Below, one piece after another: positions 3,101 through 52,087 of a stretch of 64,000 nucleotides of DNA. Below the pieces are notes generated by a model. That model was not told the origin of the DNA and made no database searches. It worked only from the letters and a program-made list of their open reading frames with translations. Position numbers and translations under genes: made by a program. Source of the stretch: Escherichia coli (GTDB taxonomy: Bacteria > Pseudomonadota > Gammaproteobacteria > Enterobacterales > Enterobacteriaceae); NCBI RefSeq assembly GCF_045037415.1, contig NZ_CP173438.1; one strand, given 5' to 3'. Every line of letters begins with the position of its first letter. Position 1 is the first letter of the stretch.

Positions 3101-4113
3101 TTATTAAACGTTGTCGTGAACTGGCGTTGCGAGCGCCCGCCAGAGTAGTTTTTCCGGATGCGTTAGATCAACGTGTGCTGAAAGCTGCGCAATATTTACA
3201 TCAACAAGGTCTGGCAACGCCCATTCTGGTCGCCAATCCGTTTGAACTTCGTCAGTTTGCGCTCAGTCACGGCGTGGCGATGGACGGGCTACAGGTGATA
3301 GATCCGCATGGCAACCTCGCAATGCGGGAAGAATTTGCTCATCGCTGGCTGGCCCGCGCGGGCGAAAAAACGCCGCCGGATGCGCTGGAAAAACTTACCG
3401 ATCCGCTGATGTTCGCCGCTGCAATGGTCAGCGCCGGTAAAGCGGATGTCTGTATCGCGGGCAACCTCTCTTCCACGGCGAATGTGCTGCGTGCCGGATT
3501 ACGCATTATCGGCTTGCAGCCAGGCTGTAAAACGCTCTCATCCATTTTCCTGATGCTGCCACAGTACAGCGGTCCGGCGTTGGGTTTTGCCGATTGCAGC
3601 GTGGTGCCACAGCCGACGGCGGCACAACTGGCGGATATCGCGCTTGCCAGCGCCGAAACCTGGCGCGCCATCACCGGAGAAGAACCGCGCGTGGCGATGC
3701 TGTCGTTTTCCAGCAACGGTAGTGCCCGTCACCCCTGTGTTGCCAACGTCCAGCAGGCGACAGAAATCGTCCGTGAGCGCGCACCAAAGCTGGTTGTCGA
3801 TGGCGAGTTGCAGTTTGACGCCGCCTTCGTGCCGGAAGTGGCGGCGCAAAAAGCGCCTGCCAGCCCGTTACAGGGCAAAGCTAATGTGATGGTTTTTCCG
3901 TCGCTGGAAGCCGGAAATATTGGCTACAAAATCGCACAACGACTTGGCGGATATCGTGCCGTCGGGCCATTGATACAAGGACTTGCCGCGCCGATGCACG
4001 ATCTCTCTCGTGGTTGTAGCGTGCAGGAAATTATCGAACTGGCGCTGGTGGCAGCTGTGCCGCGTCAGACAGAAGTGAACCGCGAAAGCAGTTTACAAAC
4101 ACTGGTTGAATGA
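3097..4113 (+). CDS. eutD: EutD, phosphotransacetylase
   Basis: 338 aa PTA-family sequence; overlaps eutT stop. Confidence 0.9.
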
Positions 4114-7101: not shown

Positions 7102-8278
7102 ATTGCAGACCGCGCTCTTTCAGGCGTTCGATACCCTGAATCTGCAACGGGTAAAAACATTTAGCGTTCCACCGGTGACGCTTTGCGGTCCGGGCGCGGT
7201 GAGCAGTTGTGGGCAGCAAGCGCAAACGCGTGGGTTGAAACATCTGTTCGTGATGGCAGACAGCTTTTTGCATCAGGCAGGGATGACCGCTGGGCTGACG
7301 CGTAGCCTGGCCGTTAAAGGTATCGCCATGACGCTCTGGCCATGTCCGGTGGGCGAACCGTGCATCACCGACGTGTGTGCAGCCGTGGCGCAGTTGCGTG
7401 AATCAGGTTGTGACGGGGTGATCGCGTTTGGCGGCGGCTCGGTGCTGGATGCGGCGAAAGCCGTGGCGTTGCTGGTGACGAACCCGGATAGCACGCTGGC
7501 AGAAATGTCAGAAACCAGCGTTCTGCAACCGCGCCTGCCGTTGATTGCCATTCCAACGACCGCCGGAACCGGCTCTGAAACCACCAACGTGACGGTGATT
7601 ATCGATGCGGTAAGCGGGCGCAAACAGGTGTTAGCCCATGCCTCGCTGATGCCGGATGTCGCGATTCTCGACGCTGTGCTAACCGAAGGCGTGCCGTCGC
7701 ATGTCACGGCGATGACTGGCATTGATGCGTTAACCCATGCCATTGAAGCGTACAGCGCGCTGAACGCTACACCGTTTACCGACAGCCTGGCGATTGGCGC
7801 CATTGCGATGATTGGTCAATCGCTGCCGAAAGCGGTGGGCTACGGTCACGACCTTGTCGCCCGCGAGAGCATGTTGCTGGCTTCATGTATGGCGGGAATG
7901 GCGTTTTCCAGCGCCGGGCTTGGGTTATGCCACGCGATGGCGCATCAGCCAGGGGCGGCGCTGCATATTCCGCACGGTCTGGCGAACGCCATGTTGCTGC
8001 CAACGGTGATGGAATTTAACCGGATGGTTTGTCGTGATCGGTTTAGTCAGATTGGTCGGGCGCTGCGAACTAAAAAATCCGACGATCGTGACGCTATTAA
8101 TGCGGTAAGTGAGCTGATAGCGGAAGTTGGGATCAACAAGCGGCTGGCTGATGTGGGTGCAACAACCGGGCATTACGGTGCATGGGCGCAGGCCGCGCAG
8201 GAAGATATTTGTCTGCGCAGTAACCCGCGTACCGCCAGCCTCGAGCAGATTGTCGGCCTGTACGCAGCGGCGCAATAA
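7091..8278 (+). CDS. eutG: EutG, iron-containing alcohol dehydrogenase
   Basis: 395 aa from internal ATG (MQNELQ...), Fe-ADH family; 11-bp overlap with eutJ. Confidence 0.9.
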   Translation: MQNELQTALFQAFDTLNLQRVKTFSVPPVTLCGPGAVSSCGQQAQTRGLKHLFVMADSFLHQAGMTAGLTRSLAVKGIAMTLWPCPVGEPCITDVCAAVAQLRESGCDGVIAFGGGSVLDAAKAVALLVTNPDSTLAEMSETSVLQPRLPLIAIPTTAGTGSETTNVTVIIDAVSGRKQVLAHASLMPDVAILDAVLTEGVPSHVTAMTGIDALTHAIEAYSALNATPFTDSLAIGAIAMIGQSLPKAVGYGHDLVARESMLLASCMAGMAFSSAGLGLCHAMAHQPGAALHIPHGLANAMLLPTVMEFNRMVCRDRFSQIGRALRTKKSDDRDAINAVSELIAEVGINKRLADVGATTGHYGAWAQAAQEDICLRSNPRTASLEQIVGLYAAAQ

Positions 8279-8280
8279 AT

Positions 8281-8464
<184 letters not shown>

Positions 8465-8494: not shown

Positions 8495-9721
8495 ATGGGA
8501 ATTAACGAAATCATCATGTACATCATGATGTTCTTTATGCTGATAGCTGCCGTAGACAGGATCCTGTCGCAGTTCGGCGGTTCTGCTCGTTTCCTCGGTA
8601 AGTTCGGTAAAAGTATCGAAGGATCCGGCGGTCAGTTCGAAGAAGGCTTTATGGCAATGGGCGCTCTGGGCCTGGCTATGGTCGGTATGACCGCACTGGC
8701 ACCGGTACTGGCCCACGTTCTCGGACCGGTGATTATCCCGGTTTACGAAATGCTCGGCGCAAACCCGTCAATGTTCGCCGGAACACTGCTGGCGTGCGAT
8801 ATGGGCGGCTTCTTCCTCGCCAAAGAGCTGGCGGGCGGTGACGTAGCAGCGTGGCTATACTCTGGGTTAATTCTCGGGTCGATGATGGGGCCAACGATTG
8901 TGTTTTCCATTCCGGTGGCGCTCGGCATTATCGAACCTTCTGACCGTCGTTATCTGGCGCTCGGCGTGCTGGCGGGCATAGTGACCATTCCGATTGGCTG
9001 TATCGCTGGTGGTCTGGTAGCGATGTACTCCGGTGTGCAGATCAACGGCCAGCCTGTTGAATTCACCTTTGCGCTGATCCTGATGAACATGATCCCGGTA
9101 CTTATCGTTGCGGTGCTGGTGGCGCTGGGGCTGAAATTCATCCCGGAAAAAATGATCAACGGCTTCCAGATCTTCGCCAAATTCCTCGTTGCATTGATCA
9201 CCCTCGGTCTTGCCGCTGCGGTAGTGAAATTCCTCCTTGGCTGGGAACTGATCCCGGGCCTTGATCCTATCTTTATGGCCCCTGGCGATAAACCCGGTGA
9301 AGTGATGCGCGCCATTGAAGTTATCGGCTCGATCTCCTGCGTTCTGTTAGGGGCGTATCCAATGGTACTGCTGCTGACTCGCTGGTTTGAAAAACCGCTG
9401 ATGAGCGTCGGTAAGGTGCTGAATATGAACAATATCGCGGCAGCCGGCATGGTGGCAACGCTTGCCAACAACATTCCGATGTTTGGCATGATGAAGCAGA
9501 TGGATACCCGCGGCAAAGTCATCAACTGTGCCTTCGCCGTTTCCGCTGCTTTCGCGCTGGGCGACCATTTAGGCTTCGCCGCTGCCAACATGAACGCCAT
9601 GATCTTCCCGATGATTGTCGGCAAATTGATCGGCGGCGTAACGGCAATTGGCGTGGCGATGATGCTGGTGCCAAAAGAAGACGCGAGCGCGGCTAAAACC
9701 GAAGCGGAGGCGCAATCGTGA
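8495..9721 (+). CDS. eutH: EutH, ethanolamine permease
   Basis: 408 aa polytopic membrane protein; synteny. Confidence 0.9.
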   Translation: MGINEIIMYIMMFFMLIAAVDRILSQFGGSARFLGKFGKSIEGSGGQFEEGFMAMGALGLAMVGMTALAPVLAHVLGPVIIPVYEMLGANPSMFAGTLLACDMGGFFLAKELAGGDVAAWLYSGLILGSMMGPTIVFSIPVALGIIEPSDRRYLALGVLAGIVTIPIGCIAGGLVAMYSGVQINGQPVEFTFALILMNMIPVLIVAVLVALGLKFIPEKMINGFQIFAKFLVALITLGLAAAVVKFLLGWELIPGLDPIFMAPGDKPGEVMRAIEVIGSISCVLLGAYPMVLLLTRWFEKPLMSVGKVLNMNNIAAAGMVATLANNIPMFGMMKQMDTRGKVINCAFAVSAAFALGDHLGFAAANMNAMIFPMIVGKLIGGVTAIGVAMMLVPKEDASAAKTEAEAQS

Positions 9722-11121
9722 ACACTCGCCAGCTACTGAGCGTCGGTATCGATATCGGCACCACCACCACCCAGGTGATCTTCTCCCACCTGGAGCTGGT
9801 TAACCGTGCGGCGGTGTCGCAGGTGCCGCGCTACGAATTCATCAAACGCGAAATTAGCTGGCAAAGCCCGGTGTTCTTTACCCCTGTCGATAAACAGGGT
9901 GGTTTAAAAGAAGCGGAACTGAAAACCTTAATCCTCGAGCAATATCAGGCTGCGGGCATTGCGCCGGAAAGCGTTGATTCTGGTGCCATCATCATCACCG
10001 GTGAAAGCGCGAAAACCCGCAACGCTCGCCCGGCGGTGATGGCGCTCTCTCGGTCGCTGGGCGATTTTGTCGTCGCCAGCGCCGGGCCGCATCTCGAATC
10101 CGTGATCGCCGGTCACGGTGCCGGGGCGCAAACCCTTTCTGAACAACGGCTGTGTCGGGTACTGAATATCGACATCGGCGGTGGCACCGCGAACTACGCC
10201 CTGTTCGATGCCGGAAAAATCAGCGGCACTGCCTGCCTCAACGTCGGCGGTCGCCTGCTGGAAACCGACAGCCAGGGGCGCGTGGTTTACGCTCATAAAC
10301 CGGGGCAGATGATTGTGGATGAGTGCTTCGGCCCAGGCACTGACGCCCGTTCGCTGACCGGCGCGCAATTGGCGCAGGTTACCCGCCGGATGGCGGAACT
10401 GATTGTCGAAGTGATTGACGGAACGCTCTCGCCGCTCGCGCAGGCATTGATGCAAACCGGTTTGCTGCCCGCAGGTGTTACGCCCGAAATCATTACGCTT
10501 TCTGGCGGGGTAGGCGAATGTTATCGCCACCAGCCCGCCGACCCGTTCTGTTTTGCCGATATCGGCCCGCTTCTGGCAACGGCGCTGCATGACCATCCGC
10601 GTCTGCGTGAGATGAACGTGCAGTTTCCGGCGCAAACCGTGCGCGCCACGGTGATTGGCGCGGGTGCACATACCCTTTCGCTCTCTGGCAGCACAATATG
10701 GCTGGAGGGCGTACAACTGCCGCTGCGCAATTTGCCGGTGGCGATCCCGATTGATGAAACGGATCTGGTCAGTGCCTGGCAACAGGCGCTGATTCAACTG
10801 GATCTTTGCCCCAAAACTGACGCGTACGTGCTGGCGCTTCCCGCCTCGCTGCCTGTGCGTTACGCCGCGGTACTGACGGTCATCAACGCGCTGGTCGATT
10901 TCGTCGCGCGTTTTCCGAATCCGCATCCCCTGCTGGTGGTGGCCGGGCAGGACTTTGGTAAAGCTCTGGGCATGTTGTTGCGCCCACAGCTACAACAACT
11001 CCCGTTGGCAGTCATTGACGAAGTGATTGTCCGCGCGGGGGACTATATCGACATTGGTACGCCTCTTTTTGGCGGATCGGTTGTGCCGGTGACGGTGAAA
11101 TCACTCGCATTTCCTTCCTGA
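9718..11121 (+). CDS. eutA: EutA, ethanolamine ammonia-lyase reactivating factor
   Basis: 467 aa; overlaps eutH stop; synteny. Confidence 0.9.
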   Translation: MNTRQLLSVGIDIGTTTTQVIFSHLELVNRAAVSQVPRYEFIKREISWQSPVFFTPVDKQGGLKEAELKTLILEQYQAAGIAPESVDSGAIIITGESAKTRNARPAVMALSRSLGDFVVASAGPHLESVIAGHGAGAQTLSEQRLCRVLNIDIGGGTANYALFDAGKISGTACLNVGGRLLETDSQGRVVYAHKPGQMIVDECFGPGTDARSLTGAQLAQVTRRMAELIVEVIDGTLSPLAQALMQTGLLPAGVTPEIITLSGGVGECYRHQPADPFCFADIGPLLATALHDHPRLREMNVQFPAQTVRATVIGAGAHTLSLSGSTIWLEGVQLPLRNLPVAIPIDETDLVSAWQQALIQLDLCPKTDAYVLALPASLPVRYAAVLTVINALVDFVARFPNPHPLLVVAGQDFGKALGMLLRPQLQQLPLAVIDEVIVRAGDYIDIGTPLFGGSVVPVTVKSLAFPS

Positions 11122-11132
11122 GGGAACGACTT

Positions 11133-38538: not shown

Positions 38539-39533
38539 GCTTTATCGGCGCTGCTTTCCTGCTGCGCCTGTAACTGTTCGGTCTGGCGTTTGTATCGACG
38601 CGCCAGCACCGCACAGACCATCAATTGGATCTGATGGAAAATCATCAGGGGCAGCACCATCATACCGATCACCGATGTGGGGAACAGAATGTTTGCCATC
38701 GGGATGCCATTTGCCAGACTCTTTTTCGAACCACAAAAGACGATAGTAATTTCATCTGCCTTATTGAAGCCCAGTCGGCGTGCCATAAAGACGTTAACTA
38801 CAATCACGATAGCCAGAAGAACGCAACTGACCACCACGATAAACAGCAATGATCCCCAGCCAACTTTGTGCCAGATACCGTTAACGACGGCTTCGCTGAA
38901 TGCCGTATAAACTACCAACAGAATGGACGTCTGGTCAGTTTTCGCAATCCATTTTTTATTACGCGACACCCAGTCACCAATCCACGGCCGGGAAAGATGC
39001 CCCAACACAAATGGCAGCAACAGTTGCAGCATAATTTTACCGACCTGCTCAAGGCTGCCCCCTGCACCGTGAACATTCATCACCAGACCAACCAGCAATG
39101 GTGAAAGGAAAATCCCCAGCAGGCTGGATGCTGACGCAGAACAAACCGCCGCCGCGACGTTACCGCCCGCCATTGACGTGAAGGCGATTGCAGACTGCAC
39201 GGTCGCGGGGAGAATGCACAAGTAGAGAAAACCGGAGTAGAGCATCGGGTCGACATTTACCGGTTTCCACCAGGCAAACAGCACGCCCAGAATCGGAAAC
39301 AGCACGAAGGTGCTGCACATTACCCACAAATGCAGTCGCCAGTGGCCACCGCCAGCAATAATCGCCTCACGCGATAACTTCGCGCCGTGCATAAAAAACA
39401 GCAGGGCTATCACTGCGGTGGTCAGATTTTCAAAGAAGGGGACGAAATCGCCTCTGGCCGGAAAGAAAGAGGCCAGCAACACCACCGTGATCAGGGTTAA
39501 GGTGAAAGGATCGAGGATACGAAAAAGTTTCAT
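38535..39533 (-). CDS. yfeH: bile acid:sodium symporter-family membrane protein YfeH
   Basis: 332 aa polytopic. Confidence 0.85.
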   Translation of the reverse strand: MKLFRILDPFTLTLITVVLLASFFPARGDFVPFFENLTTAVIALLFFMHGAKLSREAIIAGGGHWRLHLWVMCSTFVLFPILGVLFAWWKPVNVDPMLYSGFLYLCILPATVQSAIAFTSMAGGNVAAAVCSASASSLLGIFLSPLLVGLVMNVHGAGGSLEQVGKIMLQLLLPFVLGHLSRPWIGDWVSRNKKWIAKTDQTSILLVVYTAFSEAVVNGIWHKVGWGSLLFIVVVSCVLLAIVIVVNVFMARRLGFNKADEITIVFCGSKKSLANGIPMANILFPTSVIGMMVLPLMIFHQIQLMVCAVLARRYKRQTEQLQAQQESSADKA

Positions 39534-43962: not shown

Positions 43963-44002
43963 TAATTTAATACGATGTATTTATTATATGGAGCACTTAA
44001 TT

Positions 44003-44887
44003 ATGGAACGCGTATATAGAACAGATCTTAAGTTGCTCCGTTATTTTCTTGCCGTAGCGGAAGAGTTGCATTTTGGTCGCGCAGCAGCGCGTTTAAATAT
44101 GTCTCAGCCTCCGCTCAGTATTCATATTAAAGAGCTGGAAAATCAACTCGGCACGCAGCTTTTTATTCGCCATTCGCGCAGCGTCGTACTGACACACGCG
44201 GGCAAAATCTTGATGGAAGAATCGCGTCGATTGCTGGTGAATGCAAATAATGTATTGGCTCGGGTTGAACAAATAGGTCGGGGAGAAGCAGGGCGGATTG
44301 AACTCGGGGTTGTGGGAACGGCAATGTGGGGACGGATGCGCCCGGTTATGCGGCGATTCCTTAGAGAAAATCCTAACGTTGAAGTTCTGTTTCGCGAAAA
44401 GATGCCCGCGATGCAAATTGCCTTGCTGGAACGCCGCGAACTTGATGCCGGGATCTGGCGAATGGCGACAGAACCACCGACTGGTTTTACCAGCTTACGG
44501 TTGCATGAATCGGCGTTTCTGGTGGCGATGCCTGAAGAGCATCATCTCTCATCATTTTCCACCGTCCCGCTGGAAGCGCTACGTGACGAGTATTTCGTTA
44601 CAATGCCGCCCGTGTACACTGACTGGGATTTTTTGCAGCGAGTTTGCCAGCAGGTGGGATTTTCACCGGTTGTTATTCGCGAAGTTAATGAACCGCAAAC
44701 GGTACTCGCCATGGTCAGTATGGGTATTGGTATCACATTGATAGCGGACAGCTACGCGCAGATGAACTGGCCCGGTGTCATATTCCGTCCGCTCAAAGAA
44801 CGCATCCCGGCAGACTTATATATTGTTTATGAAACGCAGCAGGTGACGCCCGCGCTGGTTAAACTGCTGGCGGCGTTGGCGCAGTAG
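44003..44887 (+). CDS. xapR: LysR-family activator of xapAB
   Basis: 294 aa from internal ATG (MERVYRTDLKLLRYFLAV...). Confidence 0.9.
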   Translation: MERVYRTDLKLLRYFLAVAEELHFGRAAARLNMSQPPLSIHIKELENQLGTQLFIRHSRSVVLTHAGKILMEESRRLLVNANNVLARVEQIGRGEAGRIELGVVGTAMWGRMRPVMRRFLRENPNVEVLFREKMPAMQIALLERRELDAGIWRMATEPPTGFTSLRLHESAFLVAMPEEHHLSSFSTVPLEALRDEYFVTMPPVYTDWDFLQRVCQQVGFSPVVIREVNEPQTVLAMVSMGIGITLIADSYAQMNWPGVIFRPLKERIPADLYIVYETQQVTPALVKLLAALAQ

Positions 44888-44916
44888 ATGAGAGGCACGG
44901 GAACTGCCGGACATAG

Positions 44917-44946
44917 TTGGTCTGATAAGCGAAGCGCATCAGGCAA
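44917..44946. repeat. REP-like palindromic element
   Basis: ttggtctgataagcgaagcgcatcaggcaa. Confidence 0.6.
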
Positions 44947-44966
44947 TTTCGCAAATTGCAGATAGC

Positions 44967-44995
44967 AAAAAAACGCCTTTAGGGCGCTTTTTTAC
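44967..44995 (-). terminator. intrinsic terminator downstream of the tRNA Val-Val-Lys operon
   Basis: cgccctaaaggcg hairpin flanked by A7 and T6. Confidence 0.7.
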
Positions 44996-44997
44996 AT

Positions 44998-45073
44998 TGG
45001 TGGGTCGTGCAGGATTCGAACCTGCGACCAATTGATTAAAAGTCAACTGCTCTACCAACTGAGCTAACGACCC
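44998..45073 (-). tRNA. lysV: tRNA-Lys (anticodon UUU)
   Basis: Reverse complement matches the canonical E. coli tRNA-Lys sequence (GGGTCGTTAGCTCAGTTGGTAGAGCAG...CCA). Confidence 0.95.
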
Positions 45074-45077
45074 GAAG

Positions 45078-45153
45078 TGGTGGGTGATGACGGGATCGAA
45101 CCGCCGACCCCCTCCTTGTAAGGGAGGTGCTCTCCCAGCTGAGCTAATCACCC
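45078..45153 (-). tRNA. tRNA-Val (anticodon UAC)
   Basis: Reverse complement matches canonical tRNA-Val(UAC) (GGGTGATTAGCTCAGCTGGGAGAGCACCTCCCTTACAAGGAGG...). Confidence 0.95.
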
Positions 45154-45199
45154 ACTTCGGTACTTCACATTGTTACAAGAAATCTAGCTGGCGAGAAAG

Positions 45200-45275
45200 T
45201 GGTGGGTGATGACGGGATCGAACCGCCGACCCCCTCCTTGTAAGGGAGGTGCTCTCCCAGCTGAGCTAATCACCC
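45200..45275 (-). tRNA. tRNA-Val (anticodon UAC), second identical copy
   Basis: Identical to the copy at 45078..45153. Confidence 0.95.
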
Positions 45276-45533
45276 CCGCTGTGTGGAGTCGCATTATAGG
45301 GAGAGTTCAAAATGAGTCAACGCATTTTCTAAAGAAATTGTTCGTTCGTCGTAAATTTAAGCAAGATGATCGCAAAACAGACCGTGTTGCGCAATTTGTC
45401 AACGAAAACAATAATGCGTAAGGTTGCAACCCGAACTACATTGAGGAATCAGGCGGGAGTGATAGAATATCGCCCACTCAATTTTTCCAGGATTTGCCGG
45501 TTGTCGGCATCTTTCTAAACGTAAGGCCATTTC

Positions 45534-46949
45534 ATGAAAATCAAAACTCGCTTCGCGCCAAGCCCAACAGGCTATCTGCACGTTGGCGGCGCGCGTACTG
45601 CTCTTTACTCCTGGCTTTTTGCACGTAACCACGGCGGTGAGTTCGTGCTGCGTATTGAAGACACCGATCTTGAGCGTTCCACGCCGGAAGCTATCGAAGC
45701 CATTATGGATGGCATGAACTGGCTGAGCCTGGAGTGGGATGAAGGTCCGTACTACCAGACCAAACGTTTTGATCGCTACAACGCGGTGATCGATCAGATG
45801 CTGGAAGAGGGCACAGCTTATAAATGCTATTGCTCTAAAGAGCGCCTGGAAGCGCTGCGCGAAGAGCAAATGGCGAAAGGTGAGAAGCCGCGTTATGACG
45901 GTCGCTGCCGCCACAGTCATGAGCATCACGCTGATGATGAGCCGTGTGTCGTACGTTTTGCTAACCCGCAGGAAGGTTCTGTTGTTTTTGACGATCAGAT
46001 CCGTGGTCCGATCGAGTTCAGCAACCAGGAGCTGGATGATCTGATTATCCGCCGTACCGATGGTTCCCCAACCTATAACTTCTGTGTGGTTGTCGATGAC
46101 TGGGATATGGAAATCACCCACGTTATCCGTGGCGAAGACCATATCAACAACACACCGCGCCAGATTAACATTCTTAAGGCTCTGAAAGCGCCGGTACCGG
46201 TTTATGCGCACGTTTCTATGATCAACGGCGATGACGGTAAAAAACTGTCCAAACGTCACGGGGCGGTCAGCGTAATGCAGTATCGTGATGATGGTTATCT
46301 GCCAGAAGCACTGCTGAACTATCTGGTGCGTCTGGGCTGGTCCCACGGCGATCAGGAAATCTTCACTCGTGAAGAGATGATTAAATACTTCACTCTGAAT
46401 GCCGTCAGCAAATCTGCCAGTGCGTTCAACACCGACAAGCTGCTGTGGCTGAACCATCACTACATTAACGCGTTGCCGCCGGAGTATGTTGCTACTCACT
46501 TACAGTGGCACATTGAGCAGGAAAATATCGATACCCGTAACGGCCCGCAGCTGGCTGATCTGGTGAAACTGTTGGGCGAACGCTGCAAGACGCTGAAAGA
46601 GATGGCACAGAGCTGCCGTTATTTCTACGAAGATTTTGCTGAGTTCGATGCCGACGCCGCGAAAAAACATCTGCGTCCGGTAGCGCGCCAGCCGCTGGAA
46701 GTGGTTCGTGACAAACTGACTGCGATTACTGACTGGACCGCTGAAAACGTTCATCACGCTATTCAGGCGACGGCGGATGAGCTGGAAGTGGGTATGGGTA
46801 AAGTTGGTATGCCGCTGCGTGTCGCCGTAACCGGTGCGGGGCAGTCTCCGGCGCTGGATGTTACCGTTCACGCAATCGGTAAGACCCGCAGTATCGAGCG
46901 TATCAACAAAGCGCTGGCTTTTATTGCTGAACGCGAAAATCAGCAGTAA
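45534..46949 (+). CDS. gltX: glutamyl-tRNA synthetase
   Basis: 471 aa; class I HIGH motif ([12 protein letters not shown]) and KMSKS-like KLSKR. Confidence 0.95.
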
Positions 46950-46966
46950 TTAGCGCATAAAAGATA

Positions 46967-46998
46967 AACGGCAGGAGAGATACCCCTGCCGTTTTTTA
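46967..46998. terminator. bidirectional intrinsic terminator between gltX and yfeD
   Basis: ggcagg...cctgcc hairpin followed by TTTTTT. Confidence 0.7.
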
Positions 46999-46999
46999 T

Positions 47000-47392
47000 T
47001 TATGCTGATTCATCTATGTCGAGACGAGCAAGAAAATTACGAATTCCTTCGCGTGACAAAAATTGCGCAACTTTTTCTTGCTCACTGTGAGTCATGTTGT
47101 CTATTGCGCTGATGATTTGCCGATAAGCAGGAGTGCGAATACCCGGTGCGTATTCGGCAAGGGGTTCTTCGGCTTCCAGAAGCATCGGTGTGTTATGGAA
47201 GGCTGGCGTGTTCTGAATAAACTCGCAAACTTGCGTATCGACCAGAATAAGTCTGGCACGACCGCCTTTCACGCCGGGAAATTTTTCCGTTTTCCAGCCT
47301 TTTTCTCTGATCCAACGGTTAACAGTTTGTTTAGCCACACCGAGGCATTCAGCCAGTTCTTCGGTGGTCATTTTATTGCGTAATCTTTTCAT
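47000..47392 (-). CDS. yfeD: putative DNA-binding protein YfeD (HTH, DUF1323 family)
   Basis: 130 aa; N-terminal HTH-like region paralogous to the adjacent ORF; symbol by synteny next to gltX. Confidence 0.75.
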   Translation of the reverse strand: MKRLRNKMTTEELAECLGVAKQTVNRWIREKGWKTEKFPGVKGGRARLILVDTQVCEFIQNTPAFHNTPMLLEAEEPLAEYAPGIRTPAYRQIISAIDNMTHSEQEKVAQFLSREGIRNFLARLDIDESA

Positions 47393-47393
47393 A

Positions 47394-47738
47394 TTATTTG
47401 CTATCGCGAATCCCTAAGCGTTGTAACAATCCGATAATCCCTTCCCGCAGAAGCAAGGATGTAAACTGTTTTTGTTCAACTGGCGTCATCTCTTTCGCCA
47501 GTGTCACCAGCAACACTTCAAGCGGCGCATCACCAGAAAGGGCTGGCGCTTCTCCCTGACCTTCTGGACGTTCAGCATTGCGAATATATTCACGAACCTG
47601 TTCATTGACGTGAACCAGTCGAGCCTTGCCACCCTGGACGCCTGGTTTTGGTGACGTTGTCCAGCCTTCCTTGCGTACCCATTTATTAATGGTCTGGCGG
47701 CTATAGCCGGTCAGTCTGGCAAGTTCATCTGGCGTCAT
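47394..47738 (-). CDS. yfeC: putative DNA-binding protein YfeC (HTH, DUF1323 family)
   Basis: About 114 aa from internal ATG (MTPDELARLTGYSRQTINKWVRKEGW...); ORF-track start at 47753 is an alternative. Confidence 0.75.
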   Translation of the reverse strand: MTPDELARLTGYSRQTINKWVRKEGWTTSPKPGVQGGKARLVHVNEQVREYIRNAERPEGQGEAPALSGDAPLEVLLVTLAKEMTPVEQKQFTSLLLREGIIGLLQRLGIRDSK

Positions 47739-47973
47739 CCTCTCCTTGAACATAACAATTCCCTGAATGTATGTGGGTCTATTAGTAGTTCATTTTATAA
47801 CACCACTTTACAGGAAACCGTGACATGAATAACTACTGAATGCGAGCGGTTTTCCAAAATTGTTCATTTGCCTGATTTTTCAGCGATTGAAACTACACGT
47901 GGCAATTTGCCGTTGACACATTCGGGCGGAATTCATATGATGCCGCCCGTCAACTCGACAAGCTTTACGTGAT

Positions 47974-48049
<76 letters not shown>

Positions 48050-48088
48050 AATTTTGCACCCAGCAAATTTGGTACGTAAACGACTCGT

Positions 48089-48164
<76 letters not shown>

Positions 48165-48171
48165 AATTTCA

Positions 48172-48199
48172 AACCCTCGCTGCAAAGCGGGGGTTTTTT
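48172..48199 (+). terminator. intrinsic terminator after the tRNA-Ala pair
   Basis: ccctcgc..gcggggg imperfect hairpin followed by TTTTTT. Confidence 0.5.
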
Positions 48200-48370
48200 G
48201 TCTCTGCCTTTTGCCGCTTTTGTAATACAGTCTACATCCTGGCAGTGCCGTGTGGTGAATGCATCACTGACTGCAAAAACAGCAACAGGCTGGCCCCTGT
48301 TTGCTTCGCGATGCGAATAAACTTATTATTTGTGTGCCTGAAAACCCCGATCAGTGAGAGTAGTGTACTC

Positions 48371-50560
48371 ATGTTTGTGGAGCATAACCTGATAAAAAAT
48401 ATCAAGATATTCACACTAGCGTTTACGCTCACCGTGGTACTTATTCAGCTATCCCGTTTAATTTCGCCACTTGCTGTTATCCATTCCAATTATATCTTTC
48501 TGGCGTGGATGCCACTGTGCGTAATGCTGTCAATCTTGTTTATCTTTGGCTGGCGTGGTGTCGTTCCCATTTTATGTGGGATGTTTTGCACCAATCTGTG
48601 GAACCTTCATCTCACTTTTTTACAGACCGCCGTCATGATCGGCAGCCAGGCGTTTGCAGTCCTGTGTGCCTGTGCAATATTACGCTGGCAATTGGGGACG
48701 CGTTGGCGTTATGGATTGACCAGCCGATACGTCTGGCAACGTCTGTTCTGGCTTGGTTTGGTGGCGCCGATTGGCATCAAATGCAGCATGTATCTTGTGG
48801 GAAATTTCTTTGATTTTCCGCTAAAGATATCTACCTTTTTCGGCGATGCGGATGCCATTTTCACGGTCGTTGATTTGCTAAGCCTTTTCACCGCAGTGCT
48901 GATTTACAACATGCTTTTTTACTATCTCACCCGCATGATTGTAAGTCCCCACTTTGCACAGATATTGTGGCGTAGGGATATCGCTCCGTCGTTGAGCAAA
49001 GAGAAACGCGCATTTACCTTAAGCTGGCTGGCAGCTCTTAGCGTGCTGCTACTTCTGATGTGCACACCGTATGAAAATGACTTTATTGCCGGTTACTTGG
49101 TACCTGTTTTCTTTATCATCTTTACCCTCGGTGTCGGTAAGCTTCGCTATCCGTTTTTAAATCTCACCTGGGCTGTTTCAACGCTTTGCCTGCTGAATTA
49201 CAACCAGAACTTTTTGCAAGGGGTACTAACCGAATATTCGCTGGCATTTATTCTCGCAGTACTGATTTCCTTTAGTGTTTGTCTGCTCTATATGGTGCGT
49301 ATTTATCATCGTAGTGAATGGCTTAACCGCCGCTGGCATTTGCAGGCGCTGACCGATCCGTTAACGCTCCTACCCAACTTTCGTGCGTTGGAACAAGCAC
49401 CGGAGCAAGAGGCGGGCAAGAGTTTTTGCTGCCTGCGCATTGATAATCTTGAGTTTATGAGTCGTCATTACGGCTTAATGATGCGCGTTCACTGTATCCG
49501 CTCAATTTACCGTACGTTGCTGCCGTTGATGCAGGAAAACGAAAAGTTGTATCAATTGCCGGGTAGTGAACTGCTGTTAGTGCTGAGCGGGCCGGAAACG
49601 GAAGGGCGACTCCAGCATATGGTTAACATCCTGAATAGTCGGCAAATTCACTGGAACAATACCGGGCTGGATATGGGCTATGGTGCTGCCTGGGGGCATT
49701 TTGATGGAAATCAGGAAACCCTGCAACCCTTGTTGGGGCAGTTAAGCTGGCTGGCAGAGCAATCCTGCGCACATCATCATGTGCTGGCGCTGGATAGCAG
49801 AGAGGAGATGGTTTCCGGGCAAACCACTAAACAGGTGCTATTGCTGAATACCATTCGCACGGCGTTAGATCAGGGTGATTTGCTGCTCTACGCCCAGCCA
49901 ATTCGCAACAAAGAGGGTGAAGGTTATGATGAGATCCTCGCGCGACTGAAGTATGACGGCGGCATTATGACCCCGGATAAGTTTCTGCCCCTTATTGCTC
50001 AGTTTAACCTTAGCGCGCGTTTTGATTTGCAAGTGCTGGAATCCTTGTTGAAGTGGCTGGCAACACACCCTTGCGACAAAAAAGGTCCACGATTTTCAGT
50101 CAATTTAATGCCGCTCACGCTGCTGCAAAAGAATATTGCCGGGCGGATTATTCGTCTGTTTAAGCGTTATTACATCTCCCCGCAGGCGGTCATTCTTGAG
50201 ATCACCGAGGAGCAGGCGTTTTCTAACGCAGAAAGCAGCATGTACAACATCGAGCAGCTGCATAAGTTTGGTTTCCGGATTGCGATTGATGACTTTGGCA
50301 CCGGATATGCCAACTACGAACGGTTAAAGCGTTTGCAGGCTGATATCATCAAAATTGATGGCGTCTTTGTGAAAGATATCGTCACGAACACGCTGGATGC
50401 GATGATTGTGAGATCAATTACCGATCTGGCGAAAGCGAAGTCATTGAGTGTGGTCGCGGAGTTTGTCGAGACGCAACAGCAGCAGGCGCTATTGCATAAG
50501 CTCGGGGTGCAATATCTGCAAGGGTATTTGATTGGTCGCCCGCAGCCATTAGCCGATTAA
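48371..50560 (+). CDS. pdeA: c-di-GMP phosphodiesterase PdeA (YfeA): MASE-type membrane domain, degenerate GGDEF, EAL
   Basis: 729 aa from internal ATG (MFVEHNLIKN...); EAL motifs in C-terminal third; the ORF-track N-terminal extension (TTG at 48116) runs through tRNA-Ala and is rejected. Confidence 0.85.
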   Translation: MFVEHNLIKNIKIFTLAFTLTVVLIQLSRLISPLAVIHSNYIFLAWMPLCVMLSILFIFGWRGVVPILCGMFCTNLWNLHLTFLQTAVMIGSQAFAVLCACAILRWQLGTRWRYGLTSRYVWQRLFWLGLVAPIGIKCSMYLVGNFFDFPLKISTFFGDADAIFTVVDLLSLFTAVLIYNMLFYYLTRMIVSPHFAQILWRRDIAPSLSKEKRAFTLSWLAALSVLLLLMCTPYENDFIAGYLVPVFFIIFTLGVGKLRYPFLNLTWAVSTLCLLNYNQNFLQGVLTEYSLAFILAVLISFSVCLLYMVRIYHRSEWLNRRWHLQALTDPLTLLPNFRALEQAPEQEAGKSFCCLRIDNLEFMSRHYGLMMRVHCIRSIYRTLLPLMQENEKLYQLPGSELLLVLSGPETEGRLQHMVNILNSRQIHWNNTGLDMGYGAAWGHFDGNQETLQPLLGQLSWLAEQSCAHHHVLALDSREEMVSGQTTKQVLLLNTIRTALDQGDLLLYAQPIRNKEGEGYDEILARLKYDGGIMTPDKFLPLIAQFNLSARFDLQVLESLLKWLATHPCDKKGPRFSVNLMPLTLLQKNIAGRIIRLFKRYYISPQAVILEITEEQAFSNAESSMYNIEQLHKFGFRIAIDDFGTGYANYERLKRLQADIIKIDGVFVKDIVTNTLDAMIVRSITDLAKAKSLSVVAEFVETQQQQALLHKLGVQYLQGYLIGRPQPLAD

Positions 50561-51812: not shown

Positions 51813-52087
51813 ATTTGCTCCAAATATGAGGCAGGTTAAATTTCCGTGCACATTCTATGTAACATGGTTAAGGAAAACGAGATCTTGACACACACTATAA
51901 TGACGTCCTGTGACAAGCTTAAGCAAAAATAGTGATTCTGTCATACATTTCTGCTATGTTGTGTATGGAAGCGGAAGGTTATGTAAATGTGCTAATATTA
52001 AACATAACCATAACATTCGAGTCATCTATCTTTTCGTAGTCATAATCCTGGTCTATCAGAGAAATCATCACAACCCATTTAAATGAA

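Follow-up and report, generated by a model that had tools for sequence, protein, structure and literature searches.

The closest described counterpart of the locus analysed here is the valU operon of Escherichia coli K-12, annotated in MG1655 as valU-44 bp-valX-46 bp-valY-4 bp-lysV (b2401-b2404), that is, three tRNA-Val genes followed by a tRNA-Lys gene. It is transcribed polycistronically (PMC4176162), and valU, valX and valY together with valT and valZ make up the five tRNA-Val(UAC) genes of K-12. A difference of one copy, up or down, is seen between strains for many E. coli tRNA genes, and other tandem tRNA arrays, such as glyV-glyX-glyY and alaW-alaX, resemble the valU array in consisting of identical tandem genes whose number differs by one among strains, although they encode different tRNAs at different loci (PMC4539685). 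In E. coli, direct repeats that are closely spaced and shorter than about 200 bp show prominent RecA-independent deletion, with expansions and crossovers occurring alongside; template switching in post-replication gaps, or slippage, is given as the cause (PMC7145654). The tetA assays of the Lovett and Cox laboratories, with 101-bp repeats, are like the valU array in having close direct repeats below 200 bp that yield both deletion and expansion products; they differ in being plasmid selections, whereas the valU array is known here from natural end-products alone.

We analysed a 64-kb stretch of an E. coli genome (hereafter the window; positions count from its first nucleotide). ARAGORN predicted five tRNA genes in it, one Lys(UUU), two Val(UAC) and two Ala(GGC), and found no further Val gene elsewhere in the 64 kb; the Rfam tRNA model confirmed the same five and gave no other credible match within 44000-49000. 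The first-pass annotation had reported two identical tRNA-Val(UAC) genes ahead of a tRNA-Lys gene, and both programs bear this out, 45078-45275 being the exact span of the two Val genes. All elements of the operon lie on the minus strand. Transcription is predicted to start from a single strong sigma-70 promoter at 45293..45320 (-35 TTGACT, 16-nt spacer, -10 TATAAT; 11 of 12 consensus positions). Some 18 nt separate it from the first Val gene downstream, and it is divergent from gltX. The promoter-proximal tRNA-Val(UAC), a valU/valX hybrid, occupies 45200..45275 and is separated by a 46-bp spacer (45154..45199), a homologue of the MG1655 valX-valY spacer with two substitutions, from the second tRNA-Val(UAC), the valY equivalent, at 45078..45153. 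Both scored 65.9 bits (E=3e-13) with Rfam, and they are identical over 76 of 76 nt, or over 79 bp if the 3 nt following CCA are counted. A 4-bp spacer, CTTC on the sense strand as in MG1655 (45074..45077), leads to the lysV equivalent, tRNA-Lys(UUU), at 44998..45073 (79.2 bits), directly after which an A-tract and a U-tract enclose a Rho-independent terminator hairpin (44965..44995; dG -16.7 kcal/mol, z -4.8). The divergent neighbour gltX, encoding glutamate--tRNA ligase (45534..46949, plus strand), served as the anchor of the orthologous locus across Enterobacterales, and the convergent downstream neighbour is annotated as xapR (44003..44887, plus strand). With its linkage to a divergently transcribed gltX, its tandem identical Val genes followed after 4 bp by Lys, and its single predicted promoter and terminator, the locus is identified as the E. 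coli valU tRNA operon. It departs from the canonical K-12 form, which has three Val genes with a 44-bp and a 46-bp spacer, in carrying two Val genes and the 46-bp spacer only, and is thus a contracted allele of this operon.

Pairwise alignment of the sense strand of the window with MG1655, the check proposed in the first-pass annotation, gave a single 120-bp gap within the array, which is one Val unit shorter than in K-12. The gap comprises one 76-bp Val gene and the 44-bp valU-valX spacer, exactly one repeat period; its endpoints fall inside identical sequence, and its flanks align perfectly with no foreign or scar sequence. The rest of the array (leader, 46-bp spacer, Val, CTTC and lysV) is collinear with MG1655, and the leader/promoter is essentially identical to the MG1655 valU upstream region. 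The 5′ flank of the promoter-proximal Val gene is of the valU type and its 3′ flank of the valX type; the crossover point between them is unmappable because the 76 bases are identical. The two operons thus share their position (in the order xapR, array, gltX, yfeD-yfeC, alaW-alaX), their promoter/leader, the sequences of their Val and Lys tRNAs, their 46- and 4-bp spacers and their terminator. Unlike the window, K-12 has the third Val gene with the 44-bp spacer, and an RtT repeat after the terminator. This repeat corresponds to a 156-bp insertion in MG1655 after the lysV terminator, which repeats the lysV 3′ end and the terminator and was identified as an RtT element by Rfam (3360-3485 of the extracted MG1655 locus, 47.3 bits). 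No RtT element was found by Rfam after the lysV terminator of the window (44888-44997). Some genomes are annotated with two RtT elements, a second repeat-unit polymorphism at the valU operon.

Several other features of the surroundings were recorded. Downstream of gltX, the two tRNA-Ala(GGC) genes alaW and alaX (47974-48049 and 48089-48164, plus strand) are intact according to ARAGORN and Rfam and form a second identical tandem tRNA pair in the window, with 82 bp of identity and a 115-bp period. On the other side of the array, we considered whether a deeply divergent xapR side might mark a recombination boundary between K-12 and the window, and rejected this, XapR being 98% identical and the DNA 94%. 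In some lineages, however, the sequence at this position suggests either a divergent allele or a replacement of the LysR gene adjoining the tRNA array: the LysR regulator found there in E. albertii and E. coli SCPM-O-B-8794 has only about 79% protein identity to XapR of the window, and IAI39 is, by annotation alone, assigned a different LysR-family protein (LysR/xapR-position genes in extracted-locus coordinates: L010 1093-1364; L013 3763-4644; L029 10093-10968). Further away, eutA and eutB are adjacent (9718-12494) and the eut operon of the window is uninterrupted; that of K-12 we take to carry the CPZ-55 prophage. Only an 87-bp pseudogene remnant lies beside murP (about 20255-20341), and murQ and ucpA have no gene between them (22669-22947); K-12 presumably has yfeW and murR at the murP-adjacent and murQ-ucpA positions. 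An 88-bp direct repeat with 96.6% identity in the eutG-eutH intergenic region (8277-8364 and 8377-8464) is probably a REP/BIME-type element.

The frequency of array alleles was assessed in 5426 complete E. coli genomes using queries that span diagnostic junctions. A 422-bp whole-array query, reaching from 24 bp past the lysV 3′ end to 120 bp of leader, matched at full length in 324 genomes (6.0%), which carry a two-copy array of either type; in canonical three-copy genomes its coverage was 72-76% only. A query consisting of the 44-bp spacer, Val, CTTC and Lys, specific for a second two-copy allele, matched 214 genomes, and its Val-44-Val-4-Lys structure was checked in O103:H2 12009, APEC IMT5155 and STEC17-183. 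Leader, Val and the 46-bp spacer were found joined in 132 genomes. Because this junction count includes three-copy arrays with two 46-bp spacers, of which DSM 30083 (the type strain) and the ST131-like AVS0533 are examples, the window-type two-copy allele was counted by subtraction (324 minus 214), giving about 110 genomes (about 2%). A single Val copy (leader, Val, CTTC and Lys) was detected in 26 genomes, among them the O157:H7 strain Xuzhou21. Two 46-bp spacers flanking a Val gene, indicative of four-copy or rearranged three-copy arrays, occurred in 79 genomes, and two 44-bp spacers flanking a Val gene, indicative of four-copy arrays (one example inspected), in 70, so that four-copy or rearranged three-copy arrays account for roughly 150 genomes; IAI39 and CP026085 were inspected as four-copy examples. 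Roughly 90% of the genomes are canonical three-copy and about 9% carry non-canonical alleles. Two other ways of counting were set aside. Long-query coverage counts (205 genomes with a 1601-bp query, 156 with a 25-kb query) are undercounts, possibly owing to xapR/RtT-side differences or other indels that lower coverage; by local megablast, two-copy loci do align at full length. An MG1655 three-copy query, matching 5311 genomes at a coverage of at least 80%, was contaminated by pieces from two-copy genomes that had been joined, and was not used.

The locus thus occurs with one, two (two types), three (two types) or four Val copies, including reciprocal or expanded as well as alternative contracted products, and the proposal that the window carries a copy-number variant of the K-12 valU-valX-valY-lysV array, one unit having been lost between identical repeats, agrees with this range of alleles. 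The other two-copy allele, found in O103:H2 12009, APEC IMT5155, ABU 83972 and the E. albertii type strain, concerns the same operon, the same copy number and the same kind of unit loss. It differs from the window in keeping the 44-bp spacer and having lost the 46-bp one, which corresponds to a misalignment of valX with valY (84 bp identity), and it is about twice as common.

Among close relatives, E. coli AR_0089 (NZ_CP032265.1) and the window are collinear, at 99.975% identity, with 11 mismatches and three small gaps in 64 kb, and the same two Val genes are annotated in AR_0089. The best 25-kb matches include records named O25b:H4-ST131, and the window is therefore assigned to an ST131-type strain. 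No record identical to the window was present in the genome collection searched; against the nearest complete genome, DETEC-E480, it has two private SNPs, at 39412 (in yfeH) and 44419 (in xapR), and, near 51.9 kb, three small insertions that are likewise private. These insertions lie in the nupC-mntH intergenic region upstream of mntH (+T at 51885, +AAG at 51921-51923, +T at 51936) and are absent from both AR_0089 and DETEC-E480; the best ST131-like matches span five bases less than the query, and two of the three insertions are located at GATC. They resemble errors of base calling or polishing, or else a variant of the promoter region that is private to the window.

Most of the nearest relatives with identical gltX are three-copy, as seen with a query of gltX, leader, Val and the 46-bp spacer, for which they give a span of 1967, the query plus 120. 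Among the top 25-kb matches, about ten ST131-like genomes share the allele of the window (DETEC-E480, DETEC-P622, ST131 strain 751, AREA_R485, 1324KP, EC-16-526, SURV0398, 21221, AR_0089 and KE50), although the 25-kb flank holds too few SNPs to group them as one subclade. The other two-copy allele was found in about 21 of these matches, which are 2 bp shorter, and one copy in about nine, which are about 122 bp shorter; three more ST131-like genomes carry the three-copy array with two 46-bp spacers. In the ST131-like strains TUM2826 and TUM14668 the span is 115 bp shorter still, equal to one alaW/alaX period, and they may lack one unit there, which would reflect either real instability or an assembly artefact. 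Array alleles thus coexist among near-identical ST131-like genomes as well as across phylogroups, and some of the calls may be assembly errors. Either the locus repeatedly changes state inside one recent clone, or some of the assemblies are wrong.

The source isolate of the window might itself have three Val genes, one 120-bp unit having been collapsed by the assembler. Very short reads or small k-mers can indeed mis-resolve a perfectly identical core of 76-84 bp, the private insertions and SNPs hint at imperfect polishing, and public low-copy calls could include artefacts, as the apparent loss of units from both the Val and the Ala arrays of TUM2826 and TUM14668 illustrates. K-12-derived laboratory strains point the same way in that their assemblies disagree, with one Val copy in TG1 (CP196935), three in JM109 (CP117962) and four in a record labelled 'DH5alpha' (CP026085), so that either the copy number changed as the strains were propagated in the laboratory, or assemblies or labels are at fault. 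Several points speak against a collapse. Ordinary reads of 100-250 nt exceed the identical core in length, and each spacer is unique, so that the array can normally be resolved; at least ten closely related complete genomes, from several projects, have the identical allele; and 324 of the complete genomes surveyed carry two-copy arrays of one type or the other. Moreover, ABU 83972 has two copies in both of two independent assemblies, and four-copy alleles are common to sets of clonal isolates, observations which support that contracted and expanded alleles are real. We therefore regard an assembly collapse in the window as unlikely.

The window very probably carries a contracted valU-operon allele that has two Val genes in place of an ancestral three and arose by loss of a 120-bp unit through misalignment of valU with valX. 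In the proposed sequence of events, the identical valU and valX genes would misalign, either during replication (template switching or slipped misalignment) or by unequal sister-strand exchange, and the unit made up of a 76-bp Val gene and the 44-bp spacer would be lost. The product would be a hybrid first Val gene joining the native leader to the valX-valY spacer. The first-pass annotation had attributed changes of this kind to homologous recombination, and the loss of a repeat unit between identical repeats stands; a classical RecA-dependent route is less fitting for repeats of 76-84 bp lying 120 bp apart, and from repeat length, spacing and the published behaviour of short direct repeats we infer that a RecA-independent route fits better (PMC7145654). 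The order of contraction frequencies, with valX-valY (84 bp identity, adjacent; 214 genomes) above valU-valX (76 bp, adjacent; about 110) and valU-valY (76 bp, 242 bp apart; 26) the rarest, matches the prediction from repeat length and proximity, but is confounded by shared ancestry and hence only suggestive. The low number of one-copy arrays, which would require pairing of the distant valU and valY, fits a proximity effect.

The contraction leaves all processing junctions unchanged (leader to Val, Val to spacer, spacer to Val, Val through CTTC to Lys, and the terminator). As every junction is native, normal transcription and RNase P maturation are expected, and each transcript would contribute two rather than three Val tRNAs. 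The number of tRNA-Val(UAC) genes would fall from five to four; the junction query hit three places in AR_0089 rather than the usual five, which is indirect evidence consistent with four Val(UAC) genes in that strain and no compensating copy. MG1655(DE3) has ten essential tRNA transcription units; the lysT operon is essential, whereas valUXY-lysV is not one of the ten (PMC11480407), and since the whole unit is dispensable in K-12, the two-copy allele is unlikely to matter much. The effect of the contraction on Val-tRNA supply is thus probably small and the two-copy variant probably near-neutral.

A broader functional reading would treat the valU array as a fast-mutating locus, ranging from one to four Val genes and changing repeatedly within single clones such as ST131, that acts as a reversible, selectable dosage knob for the major valine tRNA. 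We consider this improbable; if it held, the two-copy state of the window would be one setting of the knob and not a neutral accident, and rapid mutation of the array would at minimum provide a VNTR-like marker that resolves sublineages. Still less probable is that the contraction itself is a selected, adaptive adjustment of tRNA-Val(UAC) supply in the sublineage. Such an adjustment would draw on the fact that tRNA gene dosage generally tracks tRNA abundance, and repeated copy-number change within one clone would be in keeping with it. Mutations in valY/lysV were also enriched in one experimental-evolution background (PMC10195153). Set against this, contractions and expansions both occur at low frequency in all lineages without sign of fixation, and MG1655 can do without the entire transcription unit; a selected adjustment is accordingly given very little credence beside a near-neutral loss of one unit.

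The direction of the change was judged from the wider distribution of the array. A pattern scan for the Val-Lys junction with one genome per species gave 120 loci, of which 56 were gltX-linked with a complete array. Three Val copies were present in 43 of the 56 species, two in six (including the E. albertii type strain), one in two, four in two and five in three (Intestinirhabdus and Edwardsiella). Other Escherichia species, as well as Klebsiella, Kluyvera, Phytobacter and Pseudocitrobacter, have exactly the same 44/46/4 spacing. This majority and the spacing common to these genera indicate that three Val copies are the ancestral enterobacterial state and that the state of the window is a derived loss. 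The opposite polarity, with two copies ancestral and a third gained by duplication in K-12 and others, could appeal to the two copies of the E. albertii type strain and to the fact that expansions do occur, but is hardly credible given the three-copy arrays of identical spacing in other genera, their predominance among species, in E. coli and among most near-identical relatives of the window, and a hybrid Val gene that joins a valX-valY-type spacer straight to the operon leader, as at a deletion junction. Expansion was observed in some of the more distant arrays. In Intestinirhabdus alba the gltX-linked array has grown to five Val genes, and in Edwardsiella the gltX-linked array has an extra Val gene after Lys, together with four Ala(GGC) genes, not two.

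The two-copy array of the window is an ordinary polymorphism of a kind already known, in a tRNA operon that is itself known, and public genomes both contain it and annotate it. Taken alone it carries little weight: it lowers the number of tRNA-Val(UAC) genes by one, to four, and K-12 can dispense with the entire operon. The survey places it in a wider setting, showing instability of the valU array in E. coli, where about 9% of the genomes carry a non-canonical allele. It also shows that differences between assemblies at this array are to be read as ordinary repeat-unit slippage, occasionally as assembly error, and not as meaningful gene loss, and it provides a concrete expectation for the valU locus that is useful to annotators and to typing schemes.
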